Program-made: the position numbers and the translations under genes
Assembly: GCF_041583155.1 (NCBI RefSeq)
Contig: NZ_JBFHGK010000010.1
Span: 33,216 to 97,215, forward strand
Direction: 5' to 3'
DNA from: Mariniflexile sp.
GTDB taxonomy: Bacteria; Bacteroidota; Bacteroidia; Flavobacteriales; Flavobacteriaceae
DNA length: 64,000 nucleotides
Notes under the pieces: model-generated
Seen by the model: only the letters and a program-made list of their open reading frames with translations
Databases searched by the model: none
Told to the model about the DNA's origin: nothing
Part shown: positions 1 through 52,975 of the stretch, piece by piece
How positions within the stretch are numbered: the first letter of the stretch is position 1
Layout: each line of letters opens with the position of its first letter

Positions 1-107
1 TCCAAGTATTTGTTTTCATCAGGATTGTAAATTTCACAAAACAAAACATCGTCTTCTATCCAAAACTTAGACTGTTCTATTTCTATAATATCGCTTTTAT
101 CAGTCAT
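1..107 (-). CDS. small STAS/SpoIIAA-like protein, B-type paralogue (N-terminal part only; runs off the window edge)
   Basis: Too short for the ORF track. The reverse complement of 1..107 reads MTDKSDIIEIEQSKFWIEDDVLFCEIYNPDENKYL. This is clearly paralogous to the N-terminus of 8325..8747 (MTNKDDFIELERSEFWTETGVLFCKIRNPDENINL). Its ATG overlaps the TAA of 107..520 by one base (TAATG). Confidence 0.7.
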   Translation of the reverse strand, partial: MTDKSDIIEIEQSKFWIEDDVLFCEIYNPDENKYL

Positions 108-520
108 TATTGTTCTGAATTAAATATGTAATTAGTTTTTAAAGAATAATGAACTGCTTTTTCGAAAGAACAAAATATTCTATTAGGTATTATAGGGTCG
201 GGAATGAGGTTAAAAATGGCTAAACCAAATTTTGTAGCGAATGAACTTACCACAAAAGATTTAGACAGCACTATTGTTTTAAGCTCCAAATTCCTGGAAA
301 GTTTTTTTACTACGGAAAACACATAACCATCACCAAGATTTCTGAGATCTATTACTAATGGATAATACCGCCCATTTGATAATTTGTCAATTACACTGAA
401 GTAATCTTTTAAATTTTCCGTATTAAAATTATTAACAGACTCTTTTTGCATGAACCGGCAAAAAACCACTCCACTGTCTAGCCAAAATTCTGCATTCCCA
501 CATTTAACTTTTTTGCTCAT
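107..520 (-). CDS. small STAS/SpoIIAA-like protein, A-type paralogue (function unknown)
   Basis: 137-aa ORF with an ATG start. It is roughly half identical by eye to 8744..9163, sharing blocks FW..GV.FC, PLVIDLR, LSKSFVVSS and IPN..F...E.A..YSL. The layout (strand, ..IDLR.. strand, C-terminal F....A..Y/W-L) resembles the STAS_2/SpoIIAA-like family. The family assignment is tentative. Confidence 0.65.
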   Translation of the reverse strand: MSKKVKCGNAEFWLDSGVVFCRFMQKESVNNFNTENLKDYFSVIDKLSNGRYYPLVIDLRNLGDGYVFSVVKKLSRNLELKTIVLSKSFVVSSFATKFGLAIFNLIPDPIIPNRIFCSFEKAVHYSLKTNYIFNSEQ

Positions 521-544
521 AACTATTTGAATTACAAACTAAAA

Positions 545-560
545 GACAATTGATGTGCCA
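545..560 (-). promoter_or_regulatory. sigma-54 type -24/-12 promoter (TGGCAC-ATCAA-TTGTC) for the 107..520 operon
   Basis: The minus strand reads TGGCACATCAATTGTC, ending 24 nt upstream of the ATG at 520. It matches TGGCAC-N5-TTGC except for the last C (T here). The same 16-mer with 1-2 changes is found at 9190..9205 in front of the paralogous operon. Confidence 0.55.
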
Positions 561-650
561 AAGTATGCCAAACACAAAAGAAACAATTTCAAGTGTCTGA
601 TTTTCAGTTATATATGTTTTTTAAGCAAAAACACAGACATAAAAAAAGTC

Positions 651-662
651 ACGGTATATCGT
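651..662. promoter_or_regulatory. putative enhancer (UAS) palindrome, proximal site (ACGGTATATCGT)
   Basis: Imperfect ACGG-N4-CCGT palindrome embedded in GTCACG..CGTGAC. Its centre lies 98 nt from the GG of the -24 box. That distance is the same as for the site at 9296..9307. Confidence 0.45.
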
Positions 663-691
663 GACTTTTTTTGATGTAAAATTTTGAAATA

Positions 692-703
692 ACGGTATTC
701 CGT
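692..703. promoter_or_regulatory. putative enhancer (UAS) palindrome, distal site (ACGGTATTCCGT)
   Basis: ACGG-N4-CCGT palindrome whose centre is 41 nt from the proximal site, the same spacing as at 9337..9348. The flank AAATAACGGTATTCCGTGAGT is nearly identical to the reverse complement of 9291..9313. Confidence 0.5.
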
Positions 704-1008
704 GAGTGTTACTTCCTAATAATCAGTACATTTCAAAATAAAATTATAAAGCTTCATTAGAAAATAATCCAAAAAAAAAGCTACCCTTTATAGGACAGCT
801 TATATTATAATTTTACTTTTCTAATTCTAGTTAAAAAATTGGGTTTCCTTAATTGCTATAAAATGTAATTTAAAATACCATATAAAATCTAAATTCATTA
901 GTATTAGTAAAATTACGACAAGAAAGATAGTTATATTTACTTTCAATAAAATACAACTAGCAACACCCTATTAGCAGGTTTCATTTGGAATTATAATATT
1001 ATAATTTG

Positions 1009-2016
1009 CTATTTGGCATACTCCGTTCTACTACCATCACTATCAATTTCATAATGAAAATCAATTTCCAACAAAGCAACATAGTCGTTAAAAGTATCAC
1101 TAGCATTTGTAGTATACCTATAAAGCCTACACATTAACATACTAGAAATTTCTTTACCAGTACCATCAATGGCCCCTAAAGGAGTGATAGCATGCTCATA
1201 CGCACTAACCGAACCTCCATTTGAAGGCACCAAAGTACTTCCGCTTACAGTTGTAGTATTTGGAAACACAGCACCAACATTAGTCCATGTATACTCTAAA
1301 GCCCAAACAACAGTATTTGACCCGACATCCGACTTGGAGGACCAATGCACATGCGGATAAATGGTTGATCCTTCTTTCCACCCATGAGGCAATTGAACAC
1401 TAAAAACCACGGAAGGCTCTTTATTGTAAGGAAAAAATAGCGCGGCGGTATTATCTTTAAACACGTCGTATTCAACATCGGTAATATCTGTTTTCTTTAT
1501 TTGAACCGTATTTACTGGTACTTTTAAATCATCAAACCTTGTAGCAGTACCTTCAAAACTCAAAGACCCATCACTTCCTATATAAGTATTATTAGTACCG
1601 TCTCCAAATCTGGTATTTCCTGCGTCGTCAATTGTCATTCGTTCACTACCGTTCGTAGTGAAGCGTATTTTATCATCATCGGGCGTTTTTTCAACTTCAA
1701 TTCTTGTATCACCTTCTTCGTTTACCATTTTATCTGGTGCGTTATCAGATAGCTCTGTCCAACTAGTTTTATAGAACCAAAAACTTTGCGTAGTGGTATC
1801 AAAAACTAACAAACCTGTTACCGGACTCGCAATGGCCATTCTTTGAGTTGAATCCATTCTAGGAATAAGAATTCCTTTTGAAGAAGACTGAATATCTAGC
1901 ATAGATGAACTATCCGGGCTATTTGTACCAATACCCACTTGTGATTTAACGGAATAAGTGATAAAAAAACAAGCGATTAGTGCGCATTTGAAAATTAAAG
2001 TATAAATGCTTTTCAT
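1009..2016 (-). CDS. secreted protein of unknown function with a tail-fibre-like N-terminal motif
   Basis: 335 aa with a signal peptide (MKSIYTLIFKCALIACFFITYSVKSQ). This is followed by VGIGT..P..S.MLDI.S..KG.L.PRM...QR.AI..P..GLLVFDT, a motif I recognise from many Bacteroidota proteins annotated as tail-fibre-domain proteins. The C-terminal beta-rich domain is unassigned. It lies 12 nt downstream of 2029..3987, so the two are probably co-transcribed. Confidence 0.6.
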   Translation of the reverse strand: MKSIYTLIFKCALIACFFITYSVKSQVGIGTNSPDSSSMLDIQSSSKGILIPRMDSTQRMAIASPVTGLLVFDTTTQSFWFYKTSWTELSDNAPDKMVNEEGDTRIEVEKTPDDDKIRFTTNGSERMTIDDAGNTRFGDGTNNTYIGSDGSLSFEGTATRFDDLKVPVNTVQIKKTDITDVEYDVFKDNTAALFFPYNKEPSVVFSVQLPHGWKEGSTIYPHVHWSSKSDVGSNTVVWALEYTWTNVGAVFPNTTTVSGSTLVPSNGGSVSAYEHAITPLGAIDGTGKEISSMLMCRLYRYTTNASDTFNDYVALLEIDFHYEIDSDGSRTEYAK

Positions 2017-2028
2017 TTTAATAATTTT

Positions 2029-3987
2029 TTAATTGGCTATTTTAAAGGTTTTGCTTCCCTCGTTTGAATGTACTACAACTAAATACACACCTTGAGAATG
2101 CTGTAATGGAATTTCAATTTGTTCTTTATTTAATACTTCATTTTTAAGTTCAACAACATACTGACCTAACATATTGTATACCAACACATTATTTAACCTT
2201 AAAAGCTTTTTATTGTTTACTACTATCGTATTATCTTTATAATAAACTTGTATATTTTCTTCTATACTCGATTTTATGCTCAGCGCATGTTCTGGAATAA
2301 ACACCAATTCAAAACGACCATTATAAACTCCTGATGGCAGGCTAAGTTCAAGGCTCGCATCTTTTAAATTATAGGTTTTATTTAACACATTATCCTTAAT
2401 GTAAACGGGATCTGGAAAATTCTCTACCGCGTCTAGCATGATTGTATGAATTCCTGATTCTTTAATTATTAAACTCAAAGGAAACTTATATGAAGCGTCA
2501 TAACTTCCAACGCCTTGAATTATATATTTTTTCGAAAAATCATTATCTATTATAAAGAACAAATCATTATCTCGTGTAGTGGAAGGAATCGCATCATAAC
2601 CTAGGTTAACACCTAAATCTGCCGTTGTTCCTGGCAAAAATCCCAGCAATAGTTGCCTATGATAGCCTTCAGGACTATTATAACCAATTCTTATATATTT
2701 TTTATCTGTATCCGCAACCTTTTCATTTTTTTGGCCAGTAGTTTTATAAAAACTTGAAATAACACCGTCTTCTGTTTTAAATACGCGTTGCGAATTACTA
2801 AAAACAACATTTCCATTAGAAATAGCGTCAATAAAAAACCCTTGAGCAACTGCAATATAGCGTTTGGGAATCACCCCTGAAGAGGTACCCAGCCCTGATA
2901 TTGTACTAATTAATGATGGCGCCACACCTCCAGTTAAATTATAAACAGCATACCCACCTTGGTAATCGGCCAAATAATGCGAAGTTGAACCGCCATCAAC
3001 CCAAAATTGTATATTATCAAAAACACTAAGATTATCTGCTATTAATTTATTAGCATCAATAGCCGAAGGATATGGGTTACCAAATAATGCACTTTGCCCT
3101 GATAGTATTGGAAATGTTATATCACCATTATTAGGAACACCTTTAAAAACATAATTTTGACCAACTACACCAGACCCTTTTATTGAAAATCCATATCCAG
3201 GATTAATAGCTGTGCTGCTCGTAATTTGTTTCCACCCATAGTAACTATTACTATTTTGCGGGAACATATATAACCATCTAGTATTTACTGTAAGAGGTGT
3301 AACTACGTTACCACTGCCATTTAAAACAGATGATGCACCATTGTAAGGCGAACCAGAATTAAATAAAATTTGTTGGGGTGAAAATGGACTTAAACCTGCA
3401 TCTGTACCATCATACAAGCCACCATATAATGAAAAAGTACCAGTATTATTAGTAGTTGGAGACGACATATAATTATAAGCATAACCGTTTGAAGTTCCTT
3501 GTTGATCTTTTAATAAACTTCCTGAAATAACCGTATTTGTATTGGCCCCTATCTGTTTTTGAACTAATTGAGAATTGCCTGCTAAACGCAAATCTCCATT
3601 TACCAAATTTAAATTTTTGGTTACTACAACACCTATATTATCTGCTACATAAACCCCTTTTTTAGACGCTCCATAAACATCAACTTCTAAATTATAAAAC
3701 TGAATACTATCGCGTGTCCCACTTATATTTAAAACGTCATTTGCCAAACTTTTAAAATAGGTTGTTCCAGAAGCAGAGGACGCCACACCATTATTAACAA
3801 AATTGTCATTAAAATATAGATCTACATCATTTACATGAATCCCTGTTGATTGATTTACATATGCATTTTCAAAATACACCGAAGTTGATGGTGATATTTT
3901 TAAAGTTCCTTCGTTTACAATTTGCGCAAAAGTAGAATTCGAGATTACTAAGCAAAGGCAATAAAACGCCAAAATTTTTATATTCAT
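2029..3987 (-). CDS. T9SS type A C-terminal sorting domain protein (large secreted protein)
   Basis: The track ORF starts at a TTG at 3993. The first ATG at 3987 gives MNIKILAFYCLCLVISNSTFAQ, a signal peptide. The C-terminus (..NVLVYNMLGQYV..GVYLVVVHSNEGSKTFKIAN) is a typical Por/T9SS sorting tail. The body is Asn/Gly/Ser-rich and beta-like. Confidence 0.75.
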   Translation of the reverse strand: MNIKILAFYCLCLVISNSTFAQIVNEGTLKISPSTSVYFENAYVNQSTGIHVNDVDLYFNDNFVNNGVASSASGTTYFKSLANDVLNISGTRDSIQFYNLEVDVYGASKKGVYVADNIGVVVTKNLNLVNGDLRLAGNSQLVQKQIGANTNTVISGSLLKDQQGTSNGYAYNYMSSPTTNNTGTFSLYGGLYDGTDAGLSPFSPQQILFNSGSPYNGASSVLNGSGNVVTPLTVNTRWLYMFPQNSNSYYGWKQITSSTAINPGYGFSIKGSGVVGQNYVFKGVPNNGDITFPILSGQSALFGNPYPSAIDANKLIADNLSVFDNIQFWVDGGSTSHYLADYQGGYAVYNLTGGVAPSLISTISGLGTSSGVIPKRYIAVAQGFFIDAISNGNVVFSNSQRVFKTEDGVISSFYKTTGQKNEKVADTDKKYIRIGYNSPEGYHRQLLLGFLPGTTADLGVNLGYDAIPSTTRDNDLFFIIDNDFSKKYIIQGVGSYDASYKFPLSLIIKESGIHTIMLDAVENFPDPVYIKDNVLNKTYNLKDASLELSLPSGVYNGRFELVFIPEHALSIKSSIEENIQVYYKDNTIVVNNKKLLRLNNVLVYNMLGQYVVELKNEVLNKEQIEIPLQHSQGVYLVVVHSNEGSKTFKIAN

Positions 3988-4165
3988 AACCAATACCCTA
4001 TTTGGTTGTTGCTACATATAAAGTTAAAATTCCGGACGGGTTATTTACATGACATTTATCATGTTTGACTATATATTGTGTTTTTTACCCAAGTAAAATG
4101 TATTTTATCGATTATTTAATACTATAAACGCTTGAGTATGTTTTTTTCGTACAATATATTTAGGT

Positions 4166-5776
4166 CTAGAAGTTTCTTAATAACTTGGCAGTAAATCCAT
4201 CGCTGTTAACATTCTGACTTTCCGAATTAATAATAGGAAAACAGAAAAAGAAGGTACTCCCTTTTCCTATAGCTGAATCAATCCAGATATTACCATCCAA
4301 TAGCTTAACCAACTTCTTAACTATTGTAAGCCCGATACCTAAACCTTCATGTAGTCTGTTATAAGAATTATTAACCTGCGTGAAGCCTTTAAAAATTAAA
4401 TCGTAATGCGCTTCTTCAATACCAATTCCTGTGTCAGAAACAAAAAATGTAATATAAACTTTACCATCTTCCTGACACACGTTGAACCCTAAGTTTACAT
4501 CACCATTTTCTGAAAATTTAAACGCATTTTTTAAGAGGTTTATTAAAATGTGTTTTAGTTTCAACTCATCAATATAAATGGTAATATGTTTATATTCTGA
4601 AGGAATTTTTAGATTAAATTTTATATGGTTTTTTCCTATTGTATTTTGATAGTCTTTCATTAGCAAATAAACATCATCAAACAAATCAGCTAAACCAATT
4701 TTTTTATTATGAATTTTCACTTTGCCCGATTCAATTAAGGAAATATTAAATAAGTCTTCAATAAGTTTAAGTAAATGTTCCCCATTTTTATGAATAATTT
4801 GGTTGTATTCCAAAATCTCATTCATAGGCGAATCGGCATCTATAAGTCCAGATAATCCTATTATAGCATTAAGGGGTGTTCTAAGTTCGTGAGACATAGT
4901 TGCCAAAAACTCCGACTTTAATTTATCCGATTCTCTGCCTTTTTCTATAGCTGCTTCAAGTTCTGCTATATATTTAATCCTTTTAGAAATATCATGTTGA
5001 ATTCCCAAATACCCAATAACGTTATTGCCACTATCCAAGATAGGATCTATAGTACTTTCCAAGTCAATTAAACTACCATCCTTCCTTTTGTTTTGATAAT
5101 GGGACATTTTAAAACTTTTCTTGTTTTTAAGGGTTTGCCAAAGCAACTTAAAACGATCGTCATCGTTGCATCCCTTTAAAACTCGAGGGGTAAACCGTCC
5201 TATAACTTCACAAGCAGTATAACCGTAGGTTTTTGTGAATTGCGGGTTCACGTAGGTTATGATGCCATCAGGATCTGTCATTATAACGATGTCGTTTGAA
5301 TTTTTCATTGCCAAATCCAATTTTCTCAACAAAAATTCATTAGACTTGCGTTCCGTTATATCCCTAATCCCAAAAACAAAATAGGTATTACCTCTTAACT
5401 GCCAATCAGAAAAAGAAAGTTCTACAGGAATTTCTTTACCATCTTTTCGTATGGCTAATAATTCAAAGTTTTTTGCAATATGTTTGCGGTGCCCTTGAGT
5501 AAAATAACCTTGTAGAATTTGGCGTTTTATTTCAAACTTATTTGATATAATTTCAAATATACTTTTACCTACAATTTCGTTGGATTGAAACCCCAACATT
5601 CTTTCCGCAGCCGGATTCCATGACAAAATAAAACCATCATAATCAACACTAACCATTGCATCCGTTGCATTTTCAACTATAGCCTCATTTAGTTTTTCAG
5701 ACTTAAGTACTTTTTCTTTAAGTATTTTATTCTCTGCCAAAAGCATTTCAATAGTTTCCTTGTCATTTTTCTCCAT
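4166..5776 (-). CDS. soluble PAS-PAS sensor histidine kinase (no TM segment, no receiver)
   Basis: 536 aa. It has two PAS modules ending in IRDITERK and IQHDISKR. The H-box is SEFLATMSHELRTPLN. N and G boxes are present (LINLLKNAFKF, DTGIGI, GLGIGL). It is a tandem paralogue of 6289..7878. Confidence 0.9.
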   Translation of the reverse strand: MEKNDKETIEMLLAENKILKEKVLKSEKLNEAIVENATDAMVSVDYDGFILSWNPAAERMLGFQSNEIVGKSIFEIISNKFEIKRQILQGYFTQGHRKHIAKNFELLAIRKDGKEIPVELSFSDWQLRGNTYFVFGIRDITERKSNEFLLRKLDLAMKNSNDIVIMTDPDGIITYVNPQFTKTYGYTACEVIGRFTPRVLKGCNDDDRFKLLWQTLKNKKSFKMSHYQNKRKDGSLIDLESTIDPILDSGNNVIGYLGIQHDISKRIKYIAELEAAIEKGRESDKLKSEFLATMSHELRTPLNAIIGLSGLIDADSPMNEILEYNQIIHKNGEHLLKLIEDLFNISLIESGKVKIHNKKIGLADLFDDVYLLMKDYQNTIGKNHIKFNLKIPSEYKHITIYIDELKLKHILINLLKNAFKFSENGDVNLGFNVCQEDGKVYITFFVSDTGIGIEEAHYDLIFKGFTQVNNSYNRLHEGLGIGLTIVKKLVKLLDGNIWIDSAIGKGSTFFFCFPIINSESQNVNSDGFTAKLLRNF

Positions 5777-6288
5777 CTTTTACTAAATTTTAATTCTACT
5801 AAACTTAATGACAAAAAAAACACACGTTACTATTGGGTTAAAAACGTTATCCTTAGGCAATAGAAACTTCAATTAACAAACACAATACGTTTTGCTCACC
5901 TTTCGTCATCATTAATTTATAATTTCATCTGACAAAATAACAGCGTTATTAATTGATAGGCATTGACAATTGTCATATTACAGTTTAAATACAATACAGA
6001 CATGAATTAAAGAAAAGAAAAGCCAATATAAACATTGTTTTTTAACACTAATTAACTCATTAAGCCTCCCACAAATAAAAAAAGCGACCCTTTTACAGAC
6101 CGCTAATTTTGCTATTAATTAAAAATAATTGAGATATAATTTCGCTATTTACTAAAACCCATACGGGACCAAATTTAAGAACCATAAATGACGGTATTTA
6201 ACAAAGCATTAATCCGGATATTTCGATTCTTAAAAAACATACCGACAATTGCTTTATTAAATAGTTTAAGGCTTTTATATTTATCCTA

Positions 6289-7878
6289 TTATTTAAAGTC
6301 ACTCAACAATGTAGTATTGTTTACGTGACTATCAATAACTTGGCATTCCGTGTTCACAACAGGAAAAGAGAAAAAGAAGGTACTTCCATTACCTAATTTT
6401 GATTCTATCCAGATATTTCCATCCAATAGTTTCAACAGCTTTTTCACTATAGTTAGCCCAACGCCTATGCCATCATAAATCCTATTATACGAATTATTGA
6501 CTTGCGTAAAGCCTTTAAAAATTAAATCGTAATGTTCTTGATCTATACCTATTCCTGTGTCATTCACAAAAAAAGTAACAAACTCCTCACCAGCGGTTTC
6601 GCGCACATTAAATCCAAAATTAACATCGCCATTTTCCGAAAATTTAAAACCATTTTTTATCAAGTTTATTAAAATATGTTTCAATTTAAAATCATCAGCA
6701 TATATACGCATATGCTTATATTCATCAGGAATTTTTAAATTGAAATTTATATGAGTCTTCCCTAATTTTTTCTGATGTTCCTTCATTAAAATATAAACTT
6801 CATCAAATAAATTAGCCAACTCAAAATGTCTTTTATACACCTTCACTTTACCCGATTCAATTAAGGAAATATTAAATAAGTCTTCAATAAGCTTAAGTAA
6901 ATGTTCCCCATTTTTATGAATAATTTGGTTGTATTCCAAAATCTCATTCAATGGCGAGTCGGCATCTATAAGTCCAGATAATCCTATTATAGCATTAAGT
7001 GGTGTTCTGAGTTCGTGAGACATGGTTGCCAGAAACTCCGATTTTATTCTGTCCGATTCTTTTTCCTTTTCTATAGCTTCCTCTAGTTTAGCCACATATT
7101 TAATTCTGCTACTAATATCATGCTGAATCCCCAAATATCCAATAACCTCACCTTCGTCATTAAGAATAGGGTCGATAGTACTCTCTAAATCTATGAAACT
7201 GCCATCCTTTTTTCTATTTTGGTAATGGCCCATTTTAAAACTTTTCTTCTCTTTAAGGGTTGCCCAAAGGCTTTCAAACCAATCTGAACCACCAGAAACT
7301 TTAAGAATTCTAGGAGTATGCTTCCCGATTACCTCATGAGGTTGGTAACCATAAATTTGCGTAAATTTAGGATTAACATAAGTAATTATTCCATCAAGAT
7401 TCGTCATTAAAACAATGTCGTTGGAGTTTTTTATTGCCAGATCTAGTTTTTTAATCAAGAAATCATTAGCCTTTCGCTCACTGATATCCCTAAAACCGAA
7501 AACAAAATTTCTATTACCATCAAATTGCCAATCTGAAAAAGAAAGTTCTACCGGAAACTCTTCACCGCCTTTTCGAATGGCCATTAATTCAAAGTTTTTT
7601 TTGGCAATTTGCTGACCTAAAAGCTGATGTTTTATTTCACTTTTATCGGATATTATTTCATAAATACTTTTATTAATAATTTCACTAGCACTAAATCCAA
7701 AAATTCTTTCGGCAGCAGGATTCCAAGACAAAATAACCCCAAGGTGATCCACACTTACCATGGCATCGGTAGAATTTTCAACTATTAATTCATTTAGTCT
7801 ATTGGACTGAATGGCTTTTTCTTTAAGCGTTTCTATCTCCGCTAAAAGCATTTGCATTGTTTTAAAATCTTCAATCAT
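6289..7878 (-). CDS. soluble PAS-PAS sensor histidine kinase (paralogue of 4166..5776)
   Basis: 529 aa with the same architecture and H-box as 4166..5776. It lies 67 nt downstream of the PAS gene 7946..8335 on the same strand. Confidence 0.9.
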   Translation of the reverse strand: MIEDFKTMQMLLAEIETLKEKAIQSNRLNELIVENSTDAMVSVDHLGVILSWNPAAERIFGFSASEIINKSIYEIISDKSEIKHQLLGQQIAKKNFELMAIRKGGEEFPVELSFSDWQFDGNRNFVFGFRDISERKANDFLIKKLDLAIKNSNDIVLMTNLDGIITYVNPKFTQIYGYQPHEVIGKHTPRILKVSGGSDWFESLWATLKEKKSFKMGHYQNRKKDGSFIDLESTIDPILNDEGEVIGYLGIQHDISSRIKYVAKLEEAIEKEKESDRIKSEFLATMSHELRTPLNAIIGLSGLIDADSPLNEILEYNQIIHKNGEHLLKLIEDLFNISLIESGKVKVYKRHFELANLFDEVYILMKEHQKKLGKTHINFNLKIPDEYKHMRIYADDFKLKHILINLIKNGFKFSENGDVNFGFNVRETAGEEFVTFFVNDTGIGIDQEHYDLIFKGFTQVNNSYNRIYDGIGVGLTIVKKLLKLLDGNIWIESKLGNGSTFFFSFPVVNTECQVIDSHVNNTTLLSDFK

Positions 7879-7945
7879 AATCCGATTTTCTCGCTATAAC
7901 ACATAACTCACTATAACTAATAACTCCATACCGCTGAAATCTGTT

Positions 7946-8335
7946 TTAGAGCTTCTCTTCAGAAACATCTTTATACATGGACACGAAGCTTTCTACATTG
8001 CCTTCACTATTTTTAATTGGTACGATAGTGGTTTCCAAACAAAATAGCTCACCTGATTTTGCCTTGTTAGTTAGTACACCACACCAAACAAAGCCATTTT
8101 TTATAGTTTCCCATAAATTTTTATAAAACTCATCATTTTGAAGATTTAAAGAAAACAAGCTATTTACCACTCCTAAAAGTTCATTTTCCTGATATCCGGT
8201 TATCTCACAAAATATATTATTAACATAAACAATACGGCCGTAATTGTCGGATACCGATATAGCCATATTTGTTCCAATAAATTGAGATGCGACAAGTTCT
8301 GATTTTTCGCACCAATTAAAATCTTTATTCGACAT
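7946..8335 (-). CDS. stand-alone PAS domain protein
   Basis: 129 aa with a single PAS fold pattern (..ISVSD..GRIVYVN..FCEITGY...ELLG......F...W..I..G..W.G......K.GE.F....TI.PI.N..G....FV....DVSE). Its start overlaps the end of 8325..8747 by 11 nt. Confidence 0.8.
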   Translation of the reverse strand: MSNKDFNWCEKSELVASQFIGTNMAISVSDNYGRIVYVNNIFCEITGYQENELLGVVNSLFSLNLQNDEFYKNLWETIKNGFVWCGVLTNKAKSGELFCLETTIVPIKNSEGNVESFVSMYKDVSEEKL

Positions 8336-8747
8336 CTTTTTGCTGTTCTTTCACATTCTGCACATATTCCAGAGCATCATTGTAATTATTAAATATTTCA
8401 AAGGGAGTAATTGGTTCGTAAATTCTTTTGTAGGACATTATTAGCAATCTTACTTTTAAAGAGTCCACAACAAATGCCTGAGCCAGACACAACTGAATAA
8501 GCTTAGTATCGCTAGATAATTTTTTAGCGCCTGATGTTAAAAAAGTACCATGTGTATTTCTTAAATCTATTAAAAATGGCTTTTTTTGACCTTCACATAA
8601 ATCTATTACAGCTTGCAAATGCTTATCAACTGTTTCTTCACTTAAATTTATGTTCTCATCAGGGTTTCTAATTTTACAAAATAAAACACCAGTTTCGGTC
8701 CAAAATTCGGAGCGTTCGAGTTCTATAAAATCATCTTTATTGGTCAT
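8325..8747 (-). CDS. small STAS/SpoIIAA-like protein, B-type
   Basis: The track ORF extends to 8774. The ATG at 8747 (MTNKDDFIELERSEFW..) matches the paralogue start at 107 and overlaps the TGA of 8744..9163 (ATGA). Motifs include PFLIDLRN, AFVVDS and EIFNNYNDALEYV. Confidence 0.65.
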   Translation of the reverse strand: MTNKDDFIELERSEFWTETGVLFCKIRNPDENINLSEETVDKHLQAVIDLCEGQKKPFLIDLRNTHGTFLTSGAKKLSSDTKLIQLCLAQAFVVDSLKVRLLIMSYKRIYEPITPFEIFNNYNDALEYVQNVKEQQKDVE

Positions 8748-9163
8748 ATTGATTTTTGGGTATTGAAAACACAATTGGTTTCTAAAGAATACTTTATAGC
8801 ATTTTCAAGGTTAGTAAATACTTTATTGGGGATAACTGAGTCTTGATTCATGATAAACAAGATTACATTCAGTTTCATAATACAAGAACTCACTACGAAT
8901 GATTTTGAAAGAATAAAAGAGTTGAGTTCAGGATTTTCAGATAATAATTCAATGGCTAATAATGCGCATTTGTTTTTAAGAGCTCTTAGATCGATAACCA
9001 ATGGAAAATGGCCATCCTTGGACAAGGTACTTATTGCTTCTAAAAAATCATCTAAAAAATGTACACTAAAATGATCATCGGCTTCATGAGGTATAAATTC
9101 ACAGAATAGCACCCCTTCATTAAACCAAAATTTAGCTTTTCTACACAGTATCTGTTCACTCAT
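8744..9163 (-). CDS. small STAS/SpoIIAA-like protein, A-type
   Basis: 139 aa and a paralogue of 107..520. It is the first gene behind the sigma-54-type promoter at 9190..9205. Confidence 0.65.
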   Translation of the reverse strand: MSEQILCRKAKFWFNEGVLFCEFIPHEADDHFSVHFLDDFLEAISTLSKDGHFPLVIDLRALKNKCALLAIELLSENPELNSFILSKSFVVSSCIMKLNVILFIMNQDSVIPNKVFTNLENAIKYSLETNCVFNTQKSI

Positions 9164-9189
9164 AATTGTAATTCATTTTAAAATTGAAT

Positions 9190-9205
9190 GACAATTGGTG
9201 TGCCA
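9190..9205 (-). promoter_or_regulatory. sigma-54 type -24/-12 promoter (TGGCAC-ACCAA-TTGTC)
   Basis: The minus strand reads TGGCACACCAATTGTC, ending 26 nt upstream of the ATG at 9163. It is a twin of 545..560. Confidence 0.55.
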
Positions 9206-9295
9206 AAGCACAACTATGCGCTACACATAATACTTATCTAATTGATTTTTAAATATTTAAGTTTTAATGAGAAAATACAGTGAATTACAGAACTC

Positions 9296-9307
9296 ACGGG
9301 ATACCGT
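9296..9307. promoter_or_regulatory. putative enhancer (UAS) palindrome, proximal site (ACGGGATACCGT)
   Basis: ACGG-N4-CCGT palindrome with its centre 98 nt from the GG of the -24 box. Confidence 0.5.
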
Positions 9308-9336
9308 TATTTTAAACCCTTAATTGACCTAAATTA

Positions 9337-9348
9337 ACGGAATACCGT
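9337..9348. promoter_or_regulatory. putative enhancer (UAS) palindrome, distal site (ACGGAATACCGT)
   Basis: This site is embedded in TAACGG-AATA-CCGTTA, which has 6-bp arms. It lies 41 nt centre to centre from the proximal site, immediately after the stop codon of the EBP gene. Confidence 0.5.
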
Positions 9349-9352
9349 TATT

Positions 9353-12322
9353 TTATGAAGGTTTTACTATGTTTAATTTGGTCATTTTATCCCGCAATGT
9401 ACTTGGTTTTAATTCTAGTAAAACAGCTGCGCCTTTAGGACCACTAATTTTCCAATCGCATTGTTTTAACACCTGAATAATATGATTGCGTTGGGCCGTG
9501 TCTAGGGATAAGTTTTTGGTATGACTTGTTATTTTAGTTTTTTGAGATTCGGACTCAAAACCAGGAATTACAAGTGTTTCATTAACCGATAAGATTACAG
9601 CTCTTTCTATTAAATTCTCTAATTCTCTAATATTTCCTGGCCAATTATATTCTTTTAACTGGTGCATAGCATCATCAGAAATGAACTTAATATGTTTGGC
9701 GTAGGCCTTATTAAATTTATCAACAAAATGTTCTACCAATAGTGGTATATCATCTTTTCGATCTTTCAGTGGAGGTACAACTATAGGAAATACGTTTAAT
9801 CTAAAATACAAATCTTCCCGAAACCTGTTGTTTTCAATTTCCTTTTTTAAGTTCCTGTTTGTTGCTGCAATAACCCTAACATCCAACTTTTTAGAGATCG
9901 AACCTCCAACTACCTCAATTTCACCTTCTTGCAAAAACCGTAAGATTTTTGGCTGCATATCTAATGGCAATTCACCTATTTCATCTAAGAATAAGGTTCC
10001 GCCGTCTGCTAATTCAAATTTCCCAATTTTATCACTAAAAGCACCTGTGAACGAACCCTTTTTATGTCCGAATAACTCACTTTCAATTAATTCTCTTGGA
10101 ATAGCCGAACAGTTAACCTTTATTAACGGCTTGTTATTTCTTAGGCTTATATTATGCACCGCCCTAGCTAACAACTCTTTACCTGTTCCAGATTCACCCA
10201 ACAACAAAACAGTAGCAGTAGTGGGCGCTACCTTCTCAACCTCGGTAAGTACTTTGCTAAATTGTACACTGCCGTAAACCATTTCTTCGTAGTTAAAGGC
10301 TAAATCGATTTCATTTCTTAGATATACATTTTCCTCTTCTAATTGGCTACGAAGAATGTTCAACTCGTTATTAGCTTTCTTTAATTCTTCGTTTGCTTTT
10401 GCTATTTCATTTTCTGATAATTTACGAGAGGTTATATCCTGAATGGTACCATAGAAATTTACAGGTATCCCTTCTTTAAAAACAACTTCTCCTAAACCGT
10501 GTATCCATTTTAATTCGTTATGGTCTTTAGTAATAATTCGGAACTCTAAATCATATTTTCCTCCGGTTTCTATACACCATTTTAGTGCCTTTTCACTAGC
10601 CAGCAAATCATCAGGATGTGTAATTGTCTTCCAAATATCAAATGTAAATTCAGTATTAATCTCAATACCAACAATTTCTTTGAATGAAGTTGAAGTTTCG
10701 GCAACTTTAGTTGTTAAATCCAAATTATAACTTCCCACTTTAGCAATACGCTGCGCTTCCGTTAATGATTTTTCACTCTTCAATAACTTCTGTTCAGCCA
10801 ACCGTTTTTGCGTAACGTCTCTAATAATACAAATTAAATATTTGTCGCCATCATCATCAATAAATCTGGTTTTTTTTGTTGAAATATAAAGGGTTTTACC
10901 ACCTTTAATGGTAAGGGTTTCTTCGTTTATGTTTTCAACTCCAGTGGCAAGCACTTGTCTATCAATAAACATAAAAGCGTCCTGCTCTTCCGGCGCTACG
11001 TCTTCAGCTAGCGTTCTACCAATTATTTGGTCTTTGGTAGCTCCAAACAACTTACAAAAAGCATCATTTACCAACACCATTCGGCTTTCTTCATCTTTTA
11101 CAAAAAAGGGGTCGCCAATATTATTAAGAAAGCTATCTAATGATTTTTCACTTTTAATTAATAGCTCTTCATTCTTTTTTCGTTCGGTTATATCATCAAT
11201 AGTTGAAAAGAAGATTTTTGTTTTACCCTTTTTATTTTTTATTACAGAAGTTGTAATCTCAACTGGGAATTTTTCTCCATTTTTACGAACATACACAAAC
11301 TGATACACCCCTACTTCACCCTTTAACGTAAGTTTAAGAGCGATTTCTAATTTATCGAATGATTCTGGTGCCCAATAAGGAAATGGCGCTTTCAGCCCTA
11401 TTAATTCTTTTCGTTTATAGCCAAGCATTTTGCATAGCCCAGGATTTACGTCTATAATTTCACCTTTACCGTTAATTACTGTTATTCCTTGGCGCAAGGA
11501 TTTAATCAGGTTTTCCGCATATATCTTCCCTTCTTTAACCTGTTTTTGAGCCCTAATTCTTTCGGTTACATCATGAAAAAATACTGAAACTCCATCACTA
11601 GTAGGTATAATACGATTTTCAAACCAGCAATCCCAGGGCTCATAATATTCCTCTAAAACAAAACTTTGTTGCGTTTCTATAGATTTATAACAATTATTAT
11701 AAAATGGTTTTCCAACAATGGCTGGAAACTCTGTCCAAATATGTTTGCCTATTAATTCCTCTGGTTTACGCCCTAGCATATTGGCCGCTTTTTTATTCAC
11801 GTAAGTATAAACCCATTGCTTGTTTAGAGATACAAAACCATCCGTCATATCCTCAATAGAATTAACAATAAAGTTTTGCGCTTTAAAAAGAGCCTCTGTA
11901 TTTTTTATTAATGCTAACTCTTGTTGCTCTTGGTAATCTGGTAATTTATCTATGTTGTTAATGGAACTTAAAACAAAATCTTCATTATCAACAGAAATTA
12001 CATACATGGTTAATAAAACATGTATTTCCGTGCCATTTTTAACTCGGATGAAATTTTCATAAGAGACTAACTCCTGTTCGGTTAATAACTTCTCTCTTAG
12101 ATGTTGCACGCTTTCTTGGCTCATTAAATTAAGCTCCAAAGTTGTTTTACCAAAAACTTCTTCTTGAGAAAAGCCAGTAAACTCTTCCCATGCAGGATTT
12201 ACGAAGGCATACTTTTTTGTTGTTAAGCTTGAAATTGATTTAGGAATAGGGCTGTTCTGAAACAAATTTGTAAATAAATTTATTTTTTCAAATTTGGAGA
12301 TGAGGGCATTTGGTTGTTCCAT
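9353..12322 (-). CDS. sigma-54-dependent transcriptional activator (bacterial enhancer-binding protein) with about five N-terminal PAS modules and no receiver domain
   Basis: AAA+ core motifs: Walker A GESGTGKE, Walker B LFLDEIGE, and the sigma-54 contact loop GSFTGA (a GAFTGA variant). A C-terminal Fis-type HTH is present (..[36 protein letters not shown]). The N-terminal ~690 aa show PAS-type repeats ending in ..DVTERI, ..DDITERK, ..RDVTQKR and ..QDITSRK. The track ORF starts at a TTG at 12430. I prefer the first ATG at 12322 ([11 protein letters not shown]..). Confidence 0.9.
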
Positions 12323-12553
12323 TTTAAACTTAAATTCTAATCTTTCGTAAGATTTATCTAATATAATATTTTTAATTGTAAGAAGAAGAAATAATACAAA
12401 CAGACGTGCTTTTTTAACTAAAATCTCCAAAAAAAAATAGGAACCATTTTAGCAAAACGATTATTCAATTTTTCAAACTTTTTTCAGCCTTATTGTCAAA
12501 AATCTAAACAATTTTATAATTAAAATATGACGGATATCATTAGTAATTATTCA

Positions 12554-12597
12554 CAAAAAAAGCTTTCCAATTTTCTTAAATAAAAAAAGGAAAGCTT
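12554..12597 (-). terminator. putative rho-independent terminator after 12660..14300
   Basis: On the minus strand, a 9-bp stem AAGCTTTCC / GGAAAGCTT with a 20-nt A/T loop is followed by a T7 run. Confidence 0.45.
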
Positions 12598-12659
12598 CCA
12601 ATAAACAAGAATTACAAATTGTTTTTATAATATTTTCAATTTACATCAAATAAGCAGAA

Positions 12660-14300
12660 TTAAAATAGCTTTTTATAATAATCATCCGCCATTCTATGCG
12701 ACGTGAATTCCGGAATCACATCATCCATTGCCGTAAATACAATATCTTGCCAAACCTCGGGTTGGTCGTAAAAAGTGGGAATTACCTTAGTTTCCAAAAT
12801 ATGGTATAAGTTATCCGTGTCAATTTGATCCTGATCCCATATTGGCATATTATGATCTAAAGCAGGTAATACAAAACAGTTTTTGGTGTCTTTTTGAAAT
12901 TCTGGAATCCAGCCATCGTTGGTAGACACATTAACCGAACCATTCATAGCTGCCGCCATCCCACTGGTTCCAGAGGCTTCACGGGTAATTCGAGGTGTAT
13001 TCAGCCAAACATCAGAACCACATTTAAGTTTCTTTGACAACTCAATTTCATAACCAATTAAGACCGCCAAATTTGGTTCGTTTTTACATTGATATACTAA
13101 GTGATTAAACAAATCGATAGCGCCATAATCAAAAGGATATGGTTTTCCTGCCCAAATTATTTGAACAGGGTATTTTTCGTTGGAAATTAAACGTTTAAAA
13201 CGATCAAAATCACGCAAAAGTAAATCGGCCCTTTTGTAGCCTGCAAAACGTCGAGCCCAAACTATGGTTAATACATTAGGATCGAACACCTTACCTGTTT
13301 GAGAATAAACCTCAGCCGCAAGGTTACTTTTTAAATCGGACTTACGCTTCTTATATGCTTCAGTATCTTTAGCAATCCAAGCATTTTTTATACTTTCGTC
13401 TTGCCAAAATTTTTGATTCTGGGCATTTGTGATTGGAATTATTTCACATATTCCTGGATAGTCTTTCCACATATCATTAGCTACAATAGCGTGCAATTTA
13501 GAAACTCCATTGGCTTTTTTTGCCATTCGTAATGCGGAAACTGTATAATTAATCATGCCCCCATTAACCATTTCTTTTTGAAGCTCTTCATCCGAAAGTC
13601 TTCGGCCAAAAAAACCACATCTATTTAAATGTCTCGCTTCCCGTTCTTCATTCCCTGCCTTTTCAGGTGTATGGGTTGTAAACACCATTTGGTTTTTACC
13701 AACACCTCTGTCTCTTAAATAATAAAAAGCCGGCAATGCATGCCCCTCATTTAAATGATAAGTGTCTGCACCTCCTAACGCTTCAACTACCTTGGCTCCA
13801 CCAATTCCAAGCACAATACTTTGTGAAACCCTAGTAACTTGATTATTATCGTATAGATGATTTGTAATTGTTCTGGACAAATGGTCATTGCCTTCCACAT
13901 CGGTGGTTAAAAAATACATAGGTACCGTTCCAAAAATTTCAGGTTTTAAAACATAGGCCCTTACCTTCACATGCGGATTATCATGAAGCGTAATCTCAAC
14001 CTCAATACCTGTATCTTCCAGGAAATCAAAATGTTTTACATTAAAATCGGACCACAATGTTTGGTCTTGGTTTCTTGCCTGATCATAATAACCATATTTC
14101 CAAAGCATCCCAATGCCTATCATGTTTTGTTTTAGTTCCAATCCAGAACGCATATGGGAACCTGCAAGAAATCCCAATCCACCCGAATAAATATTGAAAG
14201 ATTGGTCTATTCCAAATTCCATACTAAAATAAGCCACCTTTTTTTTGTATTCCTTAGCAGGGGTATAAGGATGATACCATTTACTATATATATTTTCCAT
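12660..14300 (-). CDS. short-form alpha-glucan phosphorylase family protein (GT35-like), atypical cofactor site
   Basis: 546 aa with family blocks YFSMEFGI, YSGGLGFLAG, HLNEGHA, FTTHTPEKAGNE and WAGKPYP. The signature reads REASGTSGMAAAMNG where the family normally has EASGTSGMK. See findings. Confidence 0.75.
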   Translation of the reverse strand: MENIYSKWYHPYTPAKEYKKKVAYFSMEFGIDQSFNIYSGGLGFLAGSHMRSGLELKQNMIGIGMLWKYGYYDQARNQDQTLWSDFNVKHFDFLEDTGIEVEITLHDNPHVKVRAYVLKPEIFGTVPMYFLTTDVEGNDHLSRTITNHLYDNNQVTRVSQSIVLGIGGAKVVEALGGADTYHLNEGHALPAFYYLRDRGVGKNQMVFTTHTPEKAGNEEREARHLNRCGFFGRRLSDEELQKEMVNGGMINYTVSALRMAKKANGVSKLHAIVANDMWKDYPGICEIIPITNAQNQKFWQDESIKNAWIAKDTEAYKKRKSDLKSNLAAEVYSQTGKVFDPNVLTIVWARRFAGYKRADLLLRDFDRFKRLISNEKYPVQIIWAGKPYPFDYGAIDLFNHLVYQCKNEPNLAVLIGYEIELSKKLKCGSDVWLNTPRITREASGTSGMAAAMNGSVNVSTNDGWIPEFQKDTKNCFVLPALDHNMPIWDQDQIDTDNLYHILETKVIPTFYDQPEVWQDIVFTAMDDVIPEFTSHRMADDYYKKLF

Positions 14301-14609
14301 AGTTGTTTTTATAATTAATAAAAACTAAATGTAGTAAAAATGGTTTTTCTTTAAATGAAATTCTCACAAATTATATCACCTTTTCAATGTTATTTATAAT
14401 GGTTATAAACATAACTTAAGATTCTGAGAATAAAAAACATACTAGTAATAGCTAAAGGATAACATTTAAAAGGTAAGAACCCCTTAAAACAAAAAAGCAT
14501 CCCAATCTTCTAGAAAGAAAAAAGGAAAGCTTCTCATTGGAATACCAAATTACTCTGGTAAACTACTCCCTAGATTACTCTAGGAACAACACAACTTCTT
14601 ATAAGTGCC

Positions 14610-14635
14610 AAAAAAAGCCCTAATCTCTTAGAGCT
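14610..14635 (-). terminator. rho-independent terminator after tRNA-Asp
   Basis: The minus strand reads AGCTCTAA-GAGA-TTAGGGCT (8-bp stem, one mismatch) followed by a T7 run, about 17 nt after the tRNA 3' end. Confidence 0.55.
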
Positions 14636-14651
14636 TCTTTAGCAATTTTTG

Positions 14652-14725
14652 CGGTCTGGACGGGACTCGAACCCGCGACCTTCGCCGTGACAGGGCGACA
14701 TTCTAACCAACTGAACTACCAGACC
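14652..14725 (-). tRNA. tRNA-Asp (anticodon GTC)
   Basis: The minus strand reads GGTCTGGTAGTTCAGTTGGTTAGAATGTCGCCCTGTCACGGCGAAGGTCGCGGGTTCGAGTCCCGTCCAGACCG. It folds as a cloverleaf with a 7-bp acceptor stem, anticodon stem TCGCC/GGCGA, anticodon loop CTGTCAC and a GTTCGAGTC T-loop. It is 74 nt long and CCA is not encoded. Confidence 0.93.
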
Positions 14726-14743
14726 GTTGCTTTATTGCGGTTG

Positions 14744-14774
14744 CAAATATACACGCCTTTTTTAATATCTCAAA
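14744..14774 (-). promoter_or_regulatory. Bacteroidota sigma-A type promoter for tRNA-Asp (-33 TTTG / -7 TATATTTG)
   Basis: The minus strand reads TTTG, a 19-nt spacer, then TATATTTG, which matches the TAnnTTTG consensus. The -7 box ends about 18 nt before the tRNA 5' end. Confidence 0.55.
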
Positions 14775-14884
14775 CCTTTTTTTTGATTTTTTTTATATTA
14801 TTTTTTAATGCGCTTATTTATAGCTAGATAAGTAATAAAAATATTAAACCATGGTTACCACACTTTATTTCAAGTTTAATAAAC

Positions 14885-15814
14885 TTAAACAAATTTTTTA
14901 CGCTCCACCATATAAGCGGTTAAGATGTTGTTAAAGCCTTTATTTATATCTGCTTCAACATATTTTATCTTGTATTGCAAACATTTCAATTTTAAAGCTT
15001 CAAAATAATTAAACACCGTATTTTTATAGCTTTCCTTAATACTATCGGCATATAGGTTAATATAATCTCCGGTTTCAACATCAATAAATCGTCTTGGTTT
15101 GTTATCAAAGTCAAAAATCAGCTCTTTTTGCTTATCAAAAACATGAAATAAAATAACTTCGTGTTTATTGTATTTCAAATGCCGAAGTGCTTCAAACAAC
15201 TTCGTTTCATCTTCACTTGTTTGAAACATATCAGTAAACAAAAAAATCATGGATCGCTTATGTATTTTTTCAGCAATTTCATGCAAATACTTATAGGTTT
15301 CTGTTTGCTTACTTTTATGTTTTGAAACAACAGCCTCACTTAAATGACTCAACAGCATTTCATGATGCCGTTCACTTCCCTTTTCAGGTGCATAGTAATC
15401 ATAGGCGTCACTATAAATACTTAAACCTACAGCATCGCGTTGCTTTTTCAAAATTTGCATTAATGAAGCGGCTGCTAAGGCTGAAAATGCAATCTTATTA
15501 AGGTTTTCTATGGAAAAAGAGCGCATGTCTGGGTAATGCATTGAACTACTATTATCCAGAATGATATGACAGCGCAAATTGGTCTCGTCATCATATCGCT
15601 TTGTATATAGCTTTTCTGTTTTTGCATACAGTTTCCAGTCTATATGCCTGGTACTTTCTCCTTTGTTATAAATTTTATGTTCTGCAAACTCTGCTGAAAA
15701 TCCGTGAAACGGACTTTTATGCATGCCGGCAATAAATCCCTCTACCACTTGTTTTGCAAGTAGTTCAAGATTTTTAAATCCTTCGGCTTTATTAAGTTCG
15801 TTCTGTAAATTCAT
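14885..15814 (-). CDS. DUF58 domain protein (vWA-like)
   Basis: 309 aa. It has the N-terminal block G..AG.H.SPFHGFS.EF.EH..Y..G...R.IDWK..A......K.Y..E typical of DUF58. No MoxR ATPase gene is adjacent in this window. Confidence 0.75.
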   Translation of the reverse strand: MNLQNELNKAEGFKNLELLAKQVVEGFIAGMHKSPFHGFSAEFAEHKIYNKGESTRHIDWKLYAKTEKLYTKRYDDETNLRCHIILDNSSSMHYPDMRSFSIENLNKIAFSALAAASLMQILKKQRDAVGLSIYSDAYDYYAPEKGSERHHEMLLSHLSEAVVSKHKSKQTETYKYLHEIAEKIHKRSMIFLFTDMFQTSEDETKLFEALRHLKYNKHEVILFHVFDKQKELIFDFDNKPRRFIDVETGDYINLYADSIKESYKNTVFNYFEALKLKCLQYKIKYVEADINKGFNNILTAYMVERKKFV

Positions 15815-15939
15815 AATAGGCCCACATACCCTCCCAGAAGGGAGGAATAAACATGTGGTAAAATTATATCTTAAAAATTTGGTTACATACCCCTAACTTG
15901 TTTAGCAAATAACCTAAAGCAAGGGTATAATTTAATGGG

Positions 15940-16482: not shown

Positions 16483-16507
16483 CTCTTAATTTAATTTTCA
16501 TCTAAAA

Positions 16508-22851: not shown

Positions 22852-22898
22852 CGCCCTCATTAATAACCGAGGTCGAGAACCTCAAATAATTAATTATT

Positions 22899-42648: not shown

Positions 42649-42650
42649 AA

Positions 42651-52733: not shown

Positions 52734-52975
52734 GGGTAATTTTTAAAATAATTTGGTAAAATTAAGGAAATATAACTAAGCACATATATTCTTATCTTTG
52801 AATTTACTTTAAAGTTGCGTTAGGGATTGCAGCGATATCCTTTTTAAAAGTGGACTGGAAGACACCATTCGATGGCATTTTTTTACTGATTACCACATAA
52901 TATTTATTGAAATTCACCTTTTAAAAAGATAAAGCGAAAAGCCCGACCCTTGTGGTAACGCCATAATAAATACAG

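Follow-up and report, generated by a model that had tools for sequence, protein, structure and literature searches.

The left end of the stretch analysed here (64,000 nt of contig NZ_JBFHGK010000010.1 from Mariniflexile sp., hereafter the window) encodes a sigma-54 enhancer-binding protein (EBP), two pairs of small proteins termed A and B (A2-B2 in a first operon, A1-B1 in a second), a stand-alone PAS protein, two PAS histidine kinases (HK1 and HK2) and a putative secreted protein with its partner, and it raises the question of what kind of signalling system these genes form. A first-pass annotation of 1..12322, made from the letters of the DNA, found no receiver domain (REC) there and concluded that the genes fit neither a two-component nor a partner-switching system. 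This central novelty does not stand, as a canonical kinase–receiver pair ends the second operon. The genes are instead a conserved, unstudied cassette that combines known signalling parts, and not a receiver-less system of a new kind. To our knowledge there has been almost no study in Bacteroidota of sigma-54 regulation or of STAS-type signalling.

The receiver and the kinases

The second A-B pair runs across the left end of the window, and its continuation is provided by contig L004 (8,290 bp), obtained from the exact A1 sequence. L004 matches window 1..4754 with one mismatch (99.98% identical) and reaches 3.5 kb beyond the window's left end, where the operon proceeds from A1 through B1 (135 aa), a PAS protein (133 aa) and a histidine kinase of 620 aa (HK620) to a Response_reg protein of 152 aa (REC152). 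HK620 comprises three PAS domains, an H-box with the motif SHDLKAP, and HATPase_c. The gene for REC152 overlaps the HK620 stop codon by 4 nt, about 3 kb past the window edge, and the receiver has the canonical residues (DD...D...S...K) of the acidic pocket as well as the Ser and the Lys. The system thus contains an ordinary two-component pair, and the lack of a receiver is an artefact of where the window ends.

Inside 1..12322 the first-pass statement was correct, and a tblastn search in which relatives' REC proteins served as queries detected no REC across the larger interval 1..16500; it is for the system as a whole that the statement fails. A receiver-less arrangement that is neither two-component nor partner-switching can call upon this local absence, but against it stand REC152 at the end of the A1 operon, a homologous single-domain REC following the cassette in 12 of the approximately 16 loci described below, and the orthologous EBP of Sabulilitoribacter, which itself has an N-terminal REC-GAF. 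We consider it hardly credible. An OmpR-type pair is located elsewhere in the window at 54005-55740 (minus strand), consisting of a HisKA-HATPase_c kinase and a REC-Trans_reg_C protein, and this contains the sole REC found in the window by scanning the open reading frames (ORFs) and by tblastn.

HK620 is about 24% identical to HK1 and HK2, which are of a different, HisKA type. No receiver adjoins HK1 or HK2, whereas HK620 has REC152. HK1 and HK2 are 70% identical to each other and share the same PAS-PAS-HisKA-HATPase_c architecture. Their genes are separated by 512 nt of non-coding DNA (5777-6288) that includes a terminator-like hairpin and no sigma-54 promoter. The A2-B2-PAS-HK1 transcript likely ends at this hairpin, and given these two properties of the spacer HK2 is probably driven by a promoter of its own.

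The stand-alone PAS protein of the first operon (129 aa; PAS129) has as its nearest solved relatives the FAD-binding PAS domains of MmoS (3ewk, 7e-27), NifL (2gj3, 8e-15) and Aer. Its best NCBIfam model is the NifL N-terminus (TIGR02938), with a score of 80.5 against an equivalog cut-off of 242.45. Judged by these relatives it is probably a flavin or redox sensor, and would bind a flavin. A PAS domain homologous to PAS129 forms the N-terminus of HK620 and of the corresponding Psychroserpens kinase, so that the free protein has the appearance of a kinase input that has been split off. A LOV photoreceptor was also considered for this protein and rejected; the NCRFL cysteine motif is missing on inspection by eye, and the best matches are PAS domains of the FAD type.

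The activator, its promoters and the conserved cassette

The EBP, the start of which was set at the ATG at 12322 by alignment with a Mariniflexile orthologue, contains five PAS/sensory_box stretches followed by a coiled coil, Sigma54_activat (PF00158, 4.4e-69), AAA_lid_14 and HTH_8 in Pfam and NCBIfam searches. The last of these is weak, at 19.5 bits against a cut-off of 22. The GSFTGA loop and the Walker A motif GESGTGKE are both present. The same domain searches found neither REC nor GAF in the protein, in agreement with the first-pass description of an EBP with about five PAS modules and without the usual receiver or GAF input. NifA is the best NCBIfam model for the AAA+ core, yet at 351.7 the score is below the equivalog cut-off of 528.85.

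Twin promoters (TGGCACAYCAATTGT) on the minus strand precede the two A genes, and these are the only exact occurrences of TGGCAC-N5-TTG upstream of a gene in this region. Each is accompanied by two ACGGnnnnCCGT palindromes that are 41 bp apart, the nearer lying 91 bp from the -24 element. Within the 64 kb window no further sites of the ACGGnnnnCCGT type occur, if four matches elsewhere with one mismatch are set aside. A motif scan revealed no further sigma-54 promoter or palindrome upstream of HK2 or of the cargo gene.

Alignment A7 brings together 13 promoters, taken from the EBP–A intergenic regions of 12 genomes. In all of them TGGCA[CT]N5TTGT precedes the A start codon by 41-44 nt, and the palindromes lie at about -186 and -146. 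Both palindromes, an AAATCA block, the -24/-12 elements and an inverted repeat are conserved in register, while the remaining spacer is not. The AAATCA block matches the IHF consensus WATCAAnnnnTTR in several loci, and may be an IHF-like site. The inverted repeat has the AT-rich consensus ATTCAgTTTT/AAAtTGAAT and is kept in the 13 promoters. Its covariation is modest (86.5% of the cells are paired, both partners have changed in three of the eight pairs, and the observed value is attained in 1-2 of 500 shuffles); it may be a hairpin in the 5′ untranslated region or an operator. Taken together the conserved architecture argues strongly, on comparative grounds, that the enhancer-dependent promoter is real. 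From the adjacency of the genes and the conservation of the sites, this EBP would be the protein that binds the ACGGnnnnCCGT palindromes and drives these promoters.

The distribution of the cassette was followed by two word-index searches, an exhaustive profile search and a genome scan, giving 482 clusters of the family to which A and B belong (E <= 1e-3) and 11 genome loci. Loci were annotated with our own ORF calls and phmmer, and with precomputed Pfam matches. The cassette occurs in about 16 Flavobacteriaceae genomes from at least nine genera. The carriers are Mariniflexile (four species), Algibacter (three genomes, one of which is a metagenome-assembled genome, MAG), Aquaticitalea, Hwangdonia, Olleya, Psychroserpens, Sabulilitoribacter and Saonia, together with two Flavobacteriaceae MAGs and assembly GCA_024643405.1. 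All have in common a PAS-rich EBP (865-2058 aa), the promoter, and A with B (B only in Psychroserpens), and the invariant core is limited to these elements. The comparison of gene neighbourhoods that the first-pass annotation had proposed thus turned out in its favour, with A-B syntenic with the PAS-rich sigma-54 EBP and with PAS kinases in these genomes.

Beyond the core the cassette varies. After A-B there usually come a PAS protein, a kinase of the HK620 type and a single-domain REC. Minimal forms occur in Mariniflexile gromovii, with A-B only, and in M. aquimaris, with A-B-PAS. In four genomes the HK620-type gene is without a kinase core and encodes a PAS-only protein of 253-270 aa, with the downstream single-domain REC retained. 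Upstream of the EBP many loci additionally encode a VUPS-PAS protein, together with a PAS-HisKA kinase and a REC of 125 aa. In the window genome this upstream two-component layer seems to be replaced by a glucan-phosphorylase-like gene (546 aa; 12660-14300, minus strand) and a tRNA (14652-14725, minus strand), which are flanked by DUF58 and the EBP. Two features set the window genome apart: it has two cassettes, and the first of these includes the HisKA-type HK1/HK2 pair.

Four genera, including that of the window genome, add a cargo gene and a partner gene. The cargo (652 aa) has a TIGR04183 type IX secretion system (T9SS) sorting domain (32.1 bits, cut-off 23), and residues 281-642 of the cargo show homology to RemA and RemZ over the C-terminal ~350 residues of these two proteins (PDB 8gl6_D, 5.5e-26; 8gl8_D, 7e-25). 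RemA is an adhesin of gliding, and its homologue RemZ belongs to the type-A substrates of the T9SS (PMC10994853). The full architecture of these proteins, with an N-terminal repeat and a lectin region, is absent from the cargo, which is about half their size or less (RemA 1436 aa, RemZ 1114 aa). It is 46.5% identical to its Psychroserpens orthologue. The partner (335 aa) has no T9SS C-terminal domain, and no match in the local Pfam copy or among PDB sequences. Of the T9SS cargo operon that the first-pass annotation placed at 1009..3987, the 652-aa protein therefore stands as cargo and the 335-aa product does not.

In Psychroserpens and Aquaticitalea the orthologues of cargo and partner come straight after the REC, at a distance of 30-49 nt. 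The order in Olleya is EBP-A-B-cargo-partner, the cargo gene following B directly after a gap of 55 nt, with no kinase or REC. Since it stands directly downstream in these three genera, the pair belongs recurrently to the operon and is plausible as an output, a role that the first-pass annotation had allowed for the embedded T9SS genes. The RemA-like protein would then be the output of a cascade headed by the EBP.

Fold and possible roles of A and B

All four small proteins of the window genome pass the gathering score (26 bits) of DUF7793 (PF25056), with scores of 31.6 (A1), 29.8 (A2), 50.3 (B2) and 40.0 (B1). No NCBIfam model matches any of them. The profile searches that had been suggested as a check on an unrelated, already characterized family thus lead to an uncharacterized one. 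Clustering divides A and B into two distinct subfamilies that are 26-30% identical; within the subfamilies A1 and A2 are 41%, and B1 and B2 56% identical. A literature search returned nothing on DUF7793, on 3BL4 in connection with STAS, or on STAS in connection with sigma-54 EBPs, and only passing mentions of DUF3478.

The canonical STAS models PF01740 and PF13466 give no match to the small proteins at E <= 0.1. An AlphaFold2 (AF2) model of B2, calculated with 24 homologues (predicted local distance difference test score, pLDDT, 83.5; predicted template modelling score, pTM, 0.81), is an alpha/beta structure with a central sheet and four helices, and superposes on solved STAS proteins. Its top PDB matches in Foldseek are all SpoIIAA/STAS-like, with probability 0.98-1.0 and template modelling (TM) scores of 0.5-0.67. 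The best is the DUF3478 protein 2q3l (E 3e-4, TM 0.61/0.67) and the second-best is SiaC (6kko_C); the remainder are 4hyl (an anti-sigma antagonist), 6jhk (RsbS) and 2vy9 (a stressosome entry). DUF3478/SpoIIAA-like proteins (PF11964; 2q3l, 2ook) and 3bl4 likewise are small, stand-alone and uncharacterized, and come from structural genomics. The assignment to STAS, made by eye in the first-pass annotation and described there as its weakest link, therefore holds at the level of the fold, with the caveat of a TM score of 0.3 for 3bl4.

A broad DUF7793 profile (131 sequences) has 3bl4 (Arthrobacter arth_0117; E 4e-9) as its one solved sequence relative. The same profile aligns with the antagonist RsfB below threshold (E 0.24), across a common 'xIDL(S/R)' strand, and a tandem DUF7793 relative has a faint match to SpoIIAA-like PF11964. 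The only match of a narrow A/B profile among PDB sequences, to BsaXI, was discarded as spurious; 3bl4 came within reach with the broader profile.

Two further observations concern the wider family. The metagenomic contig L022 carries at least eight consecutive DUF7793 genes (1238-9737), with 2-domain and 4-domain tandem forms, beside a CBS-HATPase_c gene, and in this contig the family has multiplied into paralogues to a striking degree. One DUF7793 representative is fused to an XRE-like helix-turn-helix, a motif recognized by eye.

In a classical phospho-dependent switch A and B would be phosphorylated on Ser/Thr by a GHKL kinase, either the adjacent HATPase_c protein or an unlinked one of RsbW type, and would then swap partners in the manner of SpoIIAA, RsbV, SypA and SiaC. 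The STAS fold of the B2 model is consistent with this, as are the weak HATPase_c_2 matches of HK620-type kinases (E 3e-4 to 4e-3) and the presence of Ser/Thr in 57% of 131 family representatives at the column opposite the RsfB phosphoserine, the alignment being sub-threshold and the column assignment approximate. In that column, however, the proteins of the window genome have Leu (B2 and B1), Ala (A2) and Val (A1), and none of the four has the conserved Ser/Thr at the start of helix alpha-2. HK620 was examined as a possible RsbW-like Ser kinase and rejected, having an H-box and a strong match to HATPase_c besides the weak one to HATPase_c_2. No PP2C, RsbW/SpoIIAB/RsbT-type kinase or anti-sigma factor was found in 1..16500, the remaining genome not having been searched, and a PP2C/SpoIIE, an RsbW-type kinase and an anti-sigma factor are likewise absent within 8-10 kb at the five related loci with annotation (L001, L002, L016-L018). 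The first-pass annotation had reported the same absence for its region. A switch of this type is distinctly unlikely, and less likely than any of the roles for A and B that follow.

The same fold could serve in a stressosome-like scaffold, in which a platform of A and B would hold the kinase inactive, the PAS protein would sense in trans, and release would permit phosphotransfer to REC152. RsbS and the stressosome 2vy9 are among the structural matches, the arrays and tandem fusions of L022 fit multimeric assemblies, and two paralogous STAS-fold types are always encoded together before a PAS sensor and a kinase. Paired STAS-fold proteins before a sensor and a GHKL kinase are indeed a likeness to the RsbR/RsbS/RsbT stressosome of Bacillus subtilis and to RsbRST modules with other outputs. 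Unlike these the cassette has no Ser kinase of RsbT type (HATPase_c_2 only), no RsbX/RsbU phosphatase and no sensor fused to STAS, A and B being single-domain proteins. Its kinases are genuine histidine kinases, with HisKA or an H-box as the dimerization and histidine phosphotransfer (DHp) element plus HATPase_c, and with a cognate REC. In addition the A and B proteins of the window lack Ser/Thr at the position of the RsbS/RsbR phosphosite, and A-B is retained in some genomes without any kinase in the operon. We regard the scaffold as unlikely.

The closest described arrangement is the syp locus of Vibrio fischeri, where the sigma-54 activator SypG switches on a locus whose first gene encodes the STAS-only protein SypA (PMC4517449). 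A sigma-54 activator and a small STAS protein in first place are common to both, and syp has a post-transcriptional SypA, two-component inputs and a surface output (PMC4517449). The systems differ in their details. SypA is a canonical PF01740 protein in which the state of phospho-Ser56 is set by SypE (an RsbW-like kinase with REC and PP2C), whereas the cassette has a DUF7793 A/B pair with neither the phosphosite nor a SypE-like enzyme; and the input of SypG is a REC, while that of the EBP is PAS. A similar comparison may be made with SiaABCD of Pseudomonas aeruginosa. SiaC, a STAS-like protein of divergent type, binds and thereby regulates a non-sigma target, but its switch is a Thr on which the kinase SiaB and the PP2C phosphatase SiaA act, and both enzymes and the phosphosite are absent here.

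It is also conceivable that A and B take no part in signalling, and are ligand-binding or chaperone-like proteins for surface proteins or metabolism, with the EBP, kinases and receiver serving only to regulate their expression. The Olleya operon, in which A-B is followed by cargo and partner without a kinase or REC, would suit such a role, as would the distant, solitary DUF7793 genes that lie beside housekeeping genes; moreover STAS folds are also found as subunits of transporters and scaffolds (review PMC8256260). Against this, A-B occurs without the cargo pair in 12 of the approximately 16 loci, A and B, unlike the exported cargo, lack a signal peptide, and the tight, invariant link is to the EBP. 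We consider a non-signalling role unlikely.

The reading that we prefer, and to which we give about an even chance, is a two-tier sigma-54 cascade of marine Flavobacteriaceae in which A and B are phosphorylation-independent adaptors, possibly feeding back on the EBP. In the first tier the cytoplasmic EBP, with its PAS array as input, would bind the two ACGGnnnnCCGT palindromes and activate the -24/-12 promoters, of which there are two in this genome. In the second tier the operons would yield the translationally coupled A/B pair, a PAS protein of the MmoS/NifL type, PAS histidine kinases and REC152, and also, in this genome and in three other genera, the T9SS-secreted RemA-like surface protein and its partner. 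A and B would constitute a partner switch that operates without a Ser kinase or phosphatase, and would couple the state of the PAS protein, kinase and receiver to a target. An adaptor role independent of phosphorylation is favoured because A and B have no phosphosite and are not accompanied by modifying enzymes. The most plausible target would be the EBP itself, since the EBP, promoter, A and B are the only part that is present in every genome. EBPs are under the control of partner proteins in NifL-NifA, PspA-PspF and HrpV/HrpG-HrpS, and by analogy A and B may act on the EBP as feedback.

The likeness to NifL-NifA goes somewhat further. In both cases the EBP has no REC; in the cassette, PAS129 and the N-terminus of HK620 best match the PAS1 of NifL (TIGR02938), and the AAA+ core of the EBP best matches NifA. 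Regulators that adjoin an EBP or are controlled by it, as in NifL-NifA, suggest control through protein–protein contact. The differences are that the NCBIfam scores are far below the equivalog cut-offs, that no nif genes are present, and that the STAS-fold pair has no counterpart there.

A number of points weigh against the cascade with A/B adaptors as we have drawn it. The one solved sequence relative, 3bl4, fits the B2 model poorly (TM 0.3, root-mean-square deviation 14.9), although this may result from segment swapping in the crystal or from an error in the model. The contacts of A and B with each other or with targets are ones that we infer. A natural A-B fusion protein exists (P0025) and the two proteins may form a heteromer, but AF2 applied to this fusion gave no usable interface (pTM 0.53, with low pLDDT in the N-terminal half; MAFFT had placed all the single-domain sequences of the input on the C-terminal half). 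Psychroserpens has a protein of the B type only, so an A/B heterodimer is not obligatory. Among four contexts of distant family members that were inspected, DUF7793 genes of other Bacteroidota are solitary and lie among housekeeping genes, apart from the array of L022; the link to the EBP is thus a trait of a sub-branch in the Flavobacteriaceae and not of the DUF7793 family as a whole. Finally, 178 nt separate HK2 from the cargo gene in the window, with no predicted terminator between them, and the terminator-like site stands between HK1 and HK2. Because of these separations sigma-54 control of HK2, cargo and partner is not established in the window genome.

A narrower version of the preferred cascade can be formulated, in which the DUF7793 proteins A and B directly gate the EBP as anti-activator and anti-anti-activator without phosphorylation, their state is set by the flavin-PAS protein and by the kinase and receiver, and the circuit times the display of a RemA-like protein for gliding or adhesion. 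In this full form it is improbable. If A and B do act without phosphorylation, partner switching would extend beyond the kinase/phosphatase model, and this could explain how receiver-less, PAS-rich EBPs are tuned. The circuit may tie redox or light-related cues to adhesion or gliding in marine degraders of polysaccharides. It offers experimental handles in a defined regulon (promoter, activator sites and IHF-like block), conserved partners and a candidate RemA-like output.

Layout of the region and other features of the window

The features are collected in Table 1. Every ORF within 1..12430 is on the minus strand, as the first-pass annotation had stated for its genes. Its gene order was likewise recovered by domain searches (STAS-like A, STAS-like B, PAS protein, PAS-PAS kinase, then the second paralogous kinase), the second A-B pair with the same promoter is present as it described, and its estimate of roughly ten PAS modules becomes exactly 10, with five in the EBP, one in the PAS protein and two in each of HK1 and HK2. 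The start of B2 and the stop of A2 overlap by 4 nt. A long hydrophobic run is absent from every protein of the region, so that all appear to be soluble.

Table 1. Coordinates of the genes and regulatory features; positions refer to the window except in the last row, where they refer to the contigs named.
Feature	Position	Strand	Description
EBP	9353..12322	-	Sigma-54 enhancer-binding protein, 989 aa; Pfam and NCBIfam domains
EBP–A2 intergenic region			189 nt; holds the first promoter
Upstream activator palindromes, first promoter	9296..9348		ACGGGATACCGT (9296-9307) and ACGGAATACCGT (9337-9348); position kept in 13 aligned promoters
AAATCA block	9236..9250 (first promoter); 597-604 (second)	-	Halfway from the activator palindromes to the -24 element
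First sigma-54 -24/-12 promoter	9192..9205	-	TGGCACACCAATTG(T); precedes the A2 start codon by 43 nt
Inverted repeat	9171..9189	-	ATTCAATTTT/AAAATGAAT; after the -12 element, ahead of the start codon; A7 columns 205-224
A2	8744..9163	-	DUF7793 type A, STAS-fold, 139 aa; PF25056, A-type cluster
B2	8325..8747	-	DUF7793 type B, STAS-fold, 140 aa; PF25056, AF2 and Foldseek
Stand-alone PAS protein	7946..8335	-	129 aa; MmoS/NifL/Aer class; PDB sequence matches, NCBIfam, tblastn
HK1	6289..7878	-	PAS-PAS-HisKA-HATPase_c, soluble, 529 aa
Terminator-like hairpin and T-run	6083..6104	-	After HK1
HK2	4166..5776	-	HK1 paralogue, 536 aa
T9SS type-A cargo	2029..3987	-	652 aa; TIGR04183; RemA/RemZ C-terminal homology
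Cargo partner	1009..2016	-	335 aa; PF26696 (PTL_trimer) in precomputed Pfam matches
Terminator-like hairpin, strong	778..801	-	10 pairs and T7; after the cargo pair
Activator palindromes, second promoter	651..703		651-662 (one mismatch) and 692-703
Second sigma-54 promoter	547..560	-	TGGCACATCAATTG(T)
A1	107..520	-	DUF7793 type A, 137 aa
B1, first 35 codons	1..105	-	DUF7793 type B, full length 135 aa; crosses the left end of the window
PAS-only HK620-type genes	L001 10639-11451; L007 10974-11771; L012 10943-11704; L013 10954-11745		No kinase core

A search of Rfam with 1..12.4 kb gave no match. Elsewhere in the window Rfam identifies an S16-Flavobacteria ribosomal leader (22859-22894, plus strand) and a Flavo-1 small RNA (52809-52952, plus strand), both in keeping with DNA from the Flavobacteriaceae. 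A two-subunit 2-oxoacid:ferredoxin oxidoreductase (41635-44507, minus strand) is encoded near a pyruvate:ferredoxin oxidoreductase of 1176 aa (45393-48923, plus strand). Both are oxygen-sensitive enzymes, and they may be of relevance to a cascade with a redox-sensing PAS protein.

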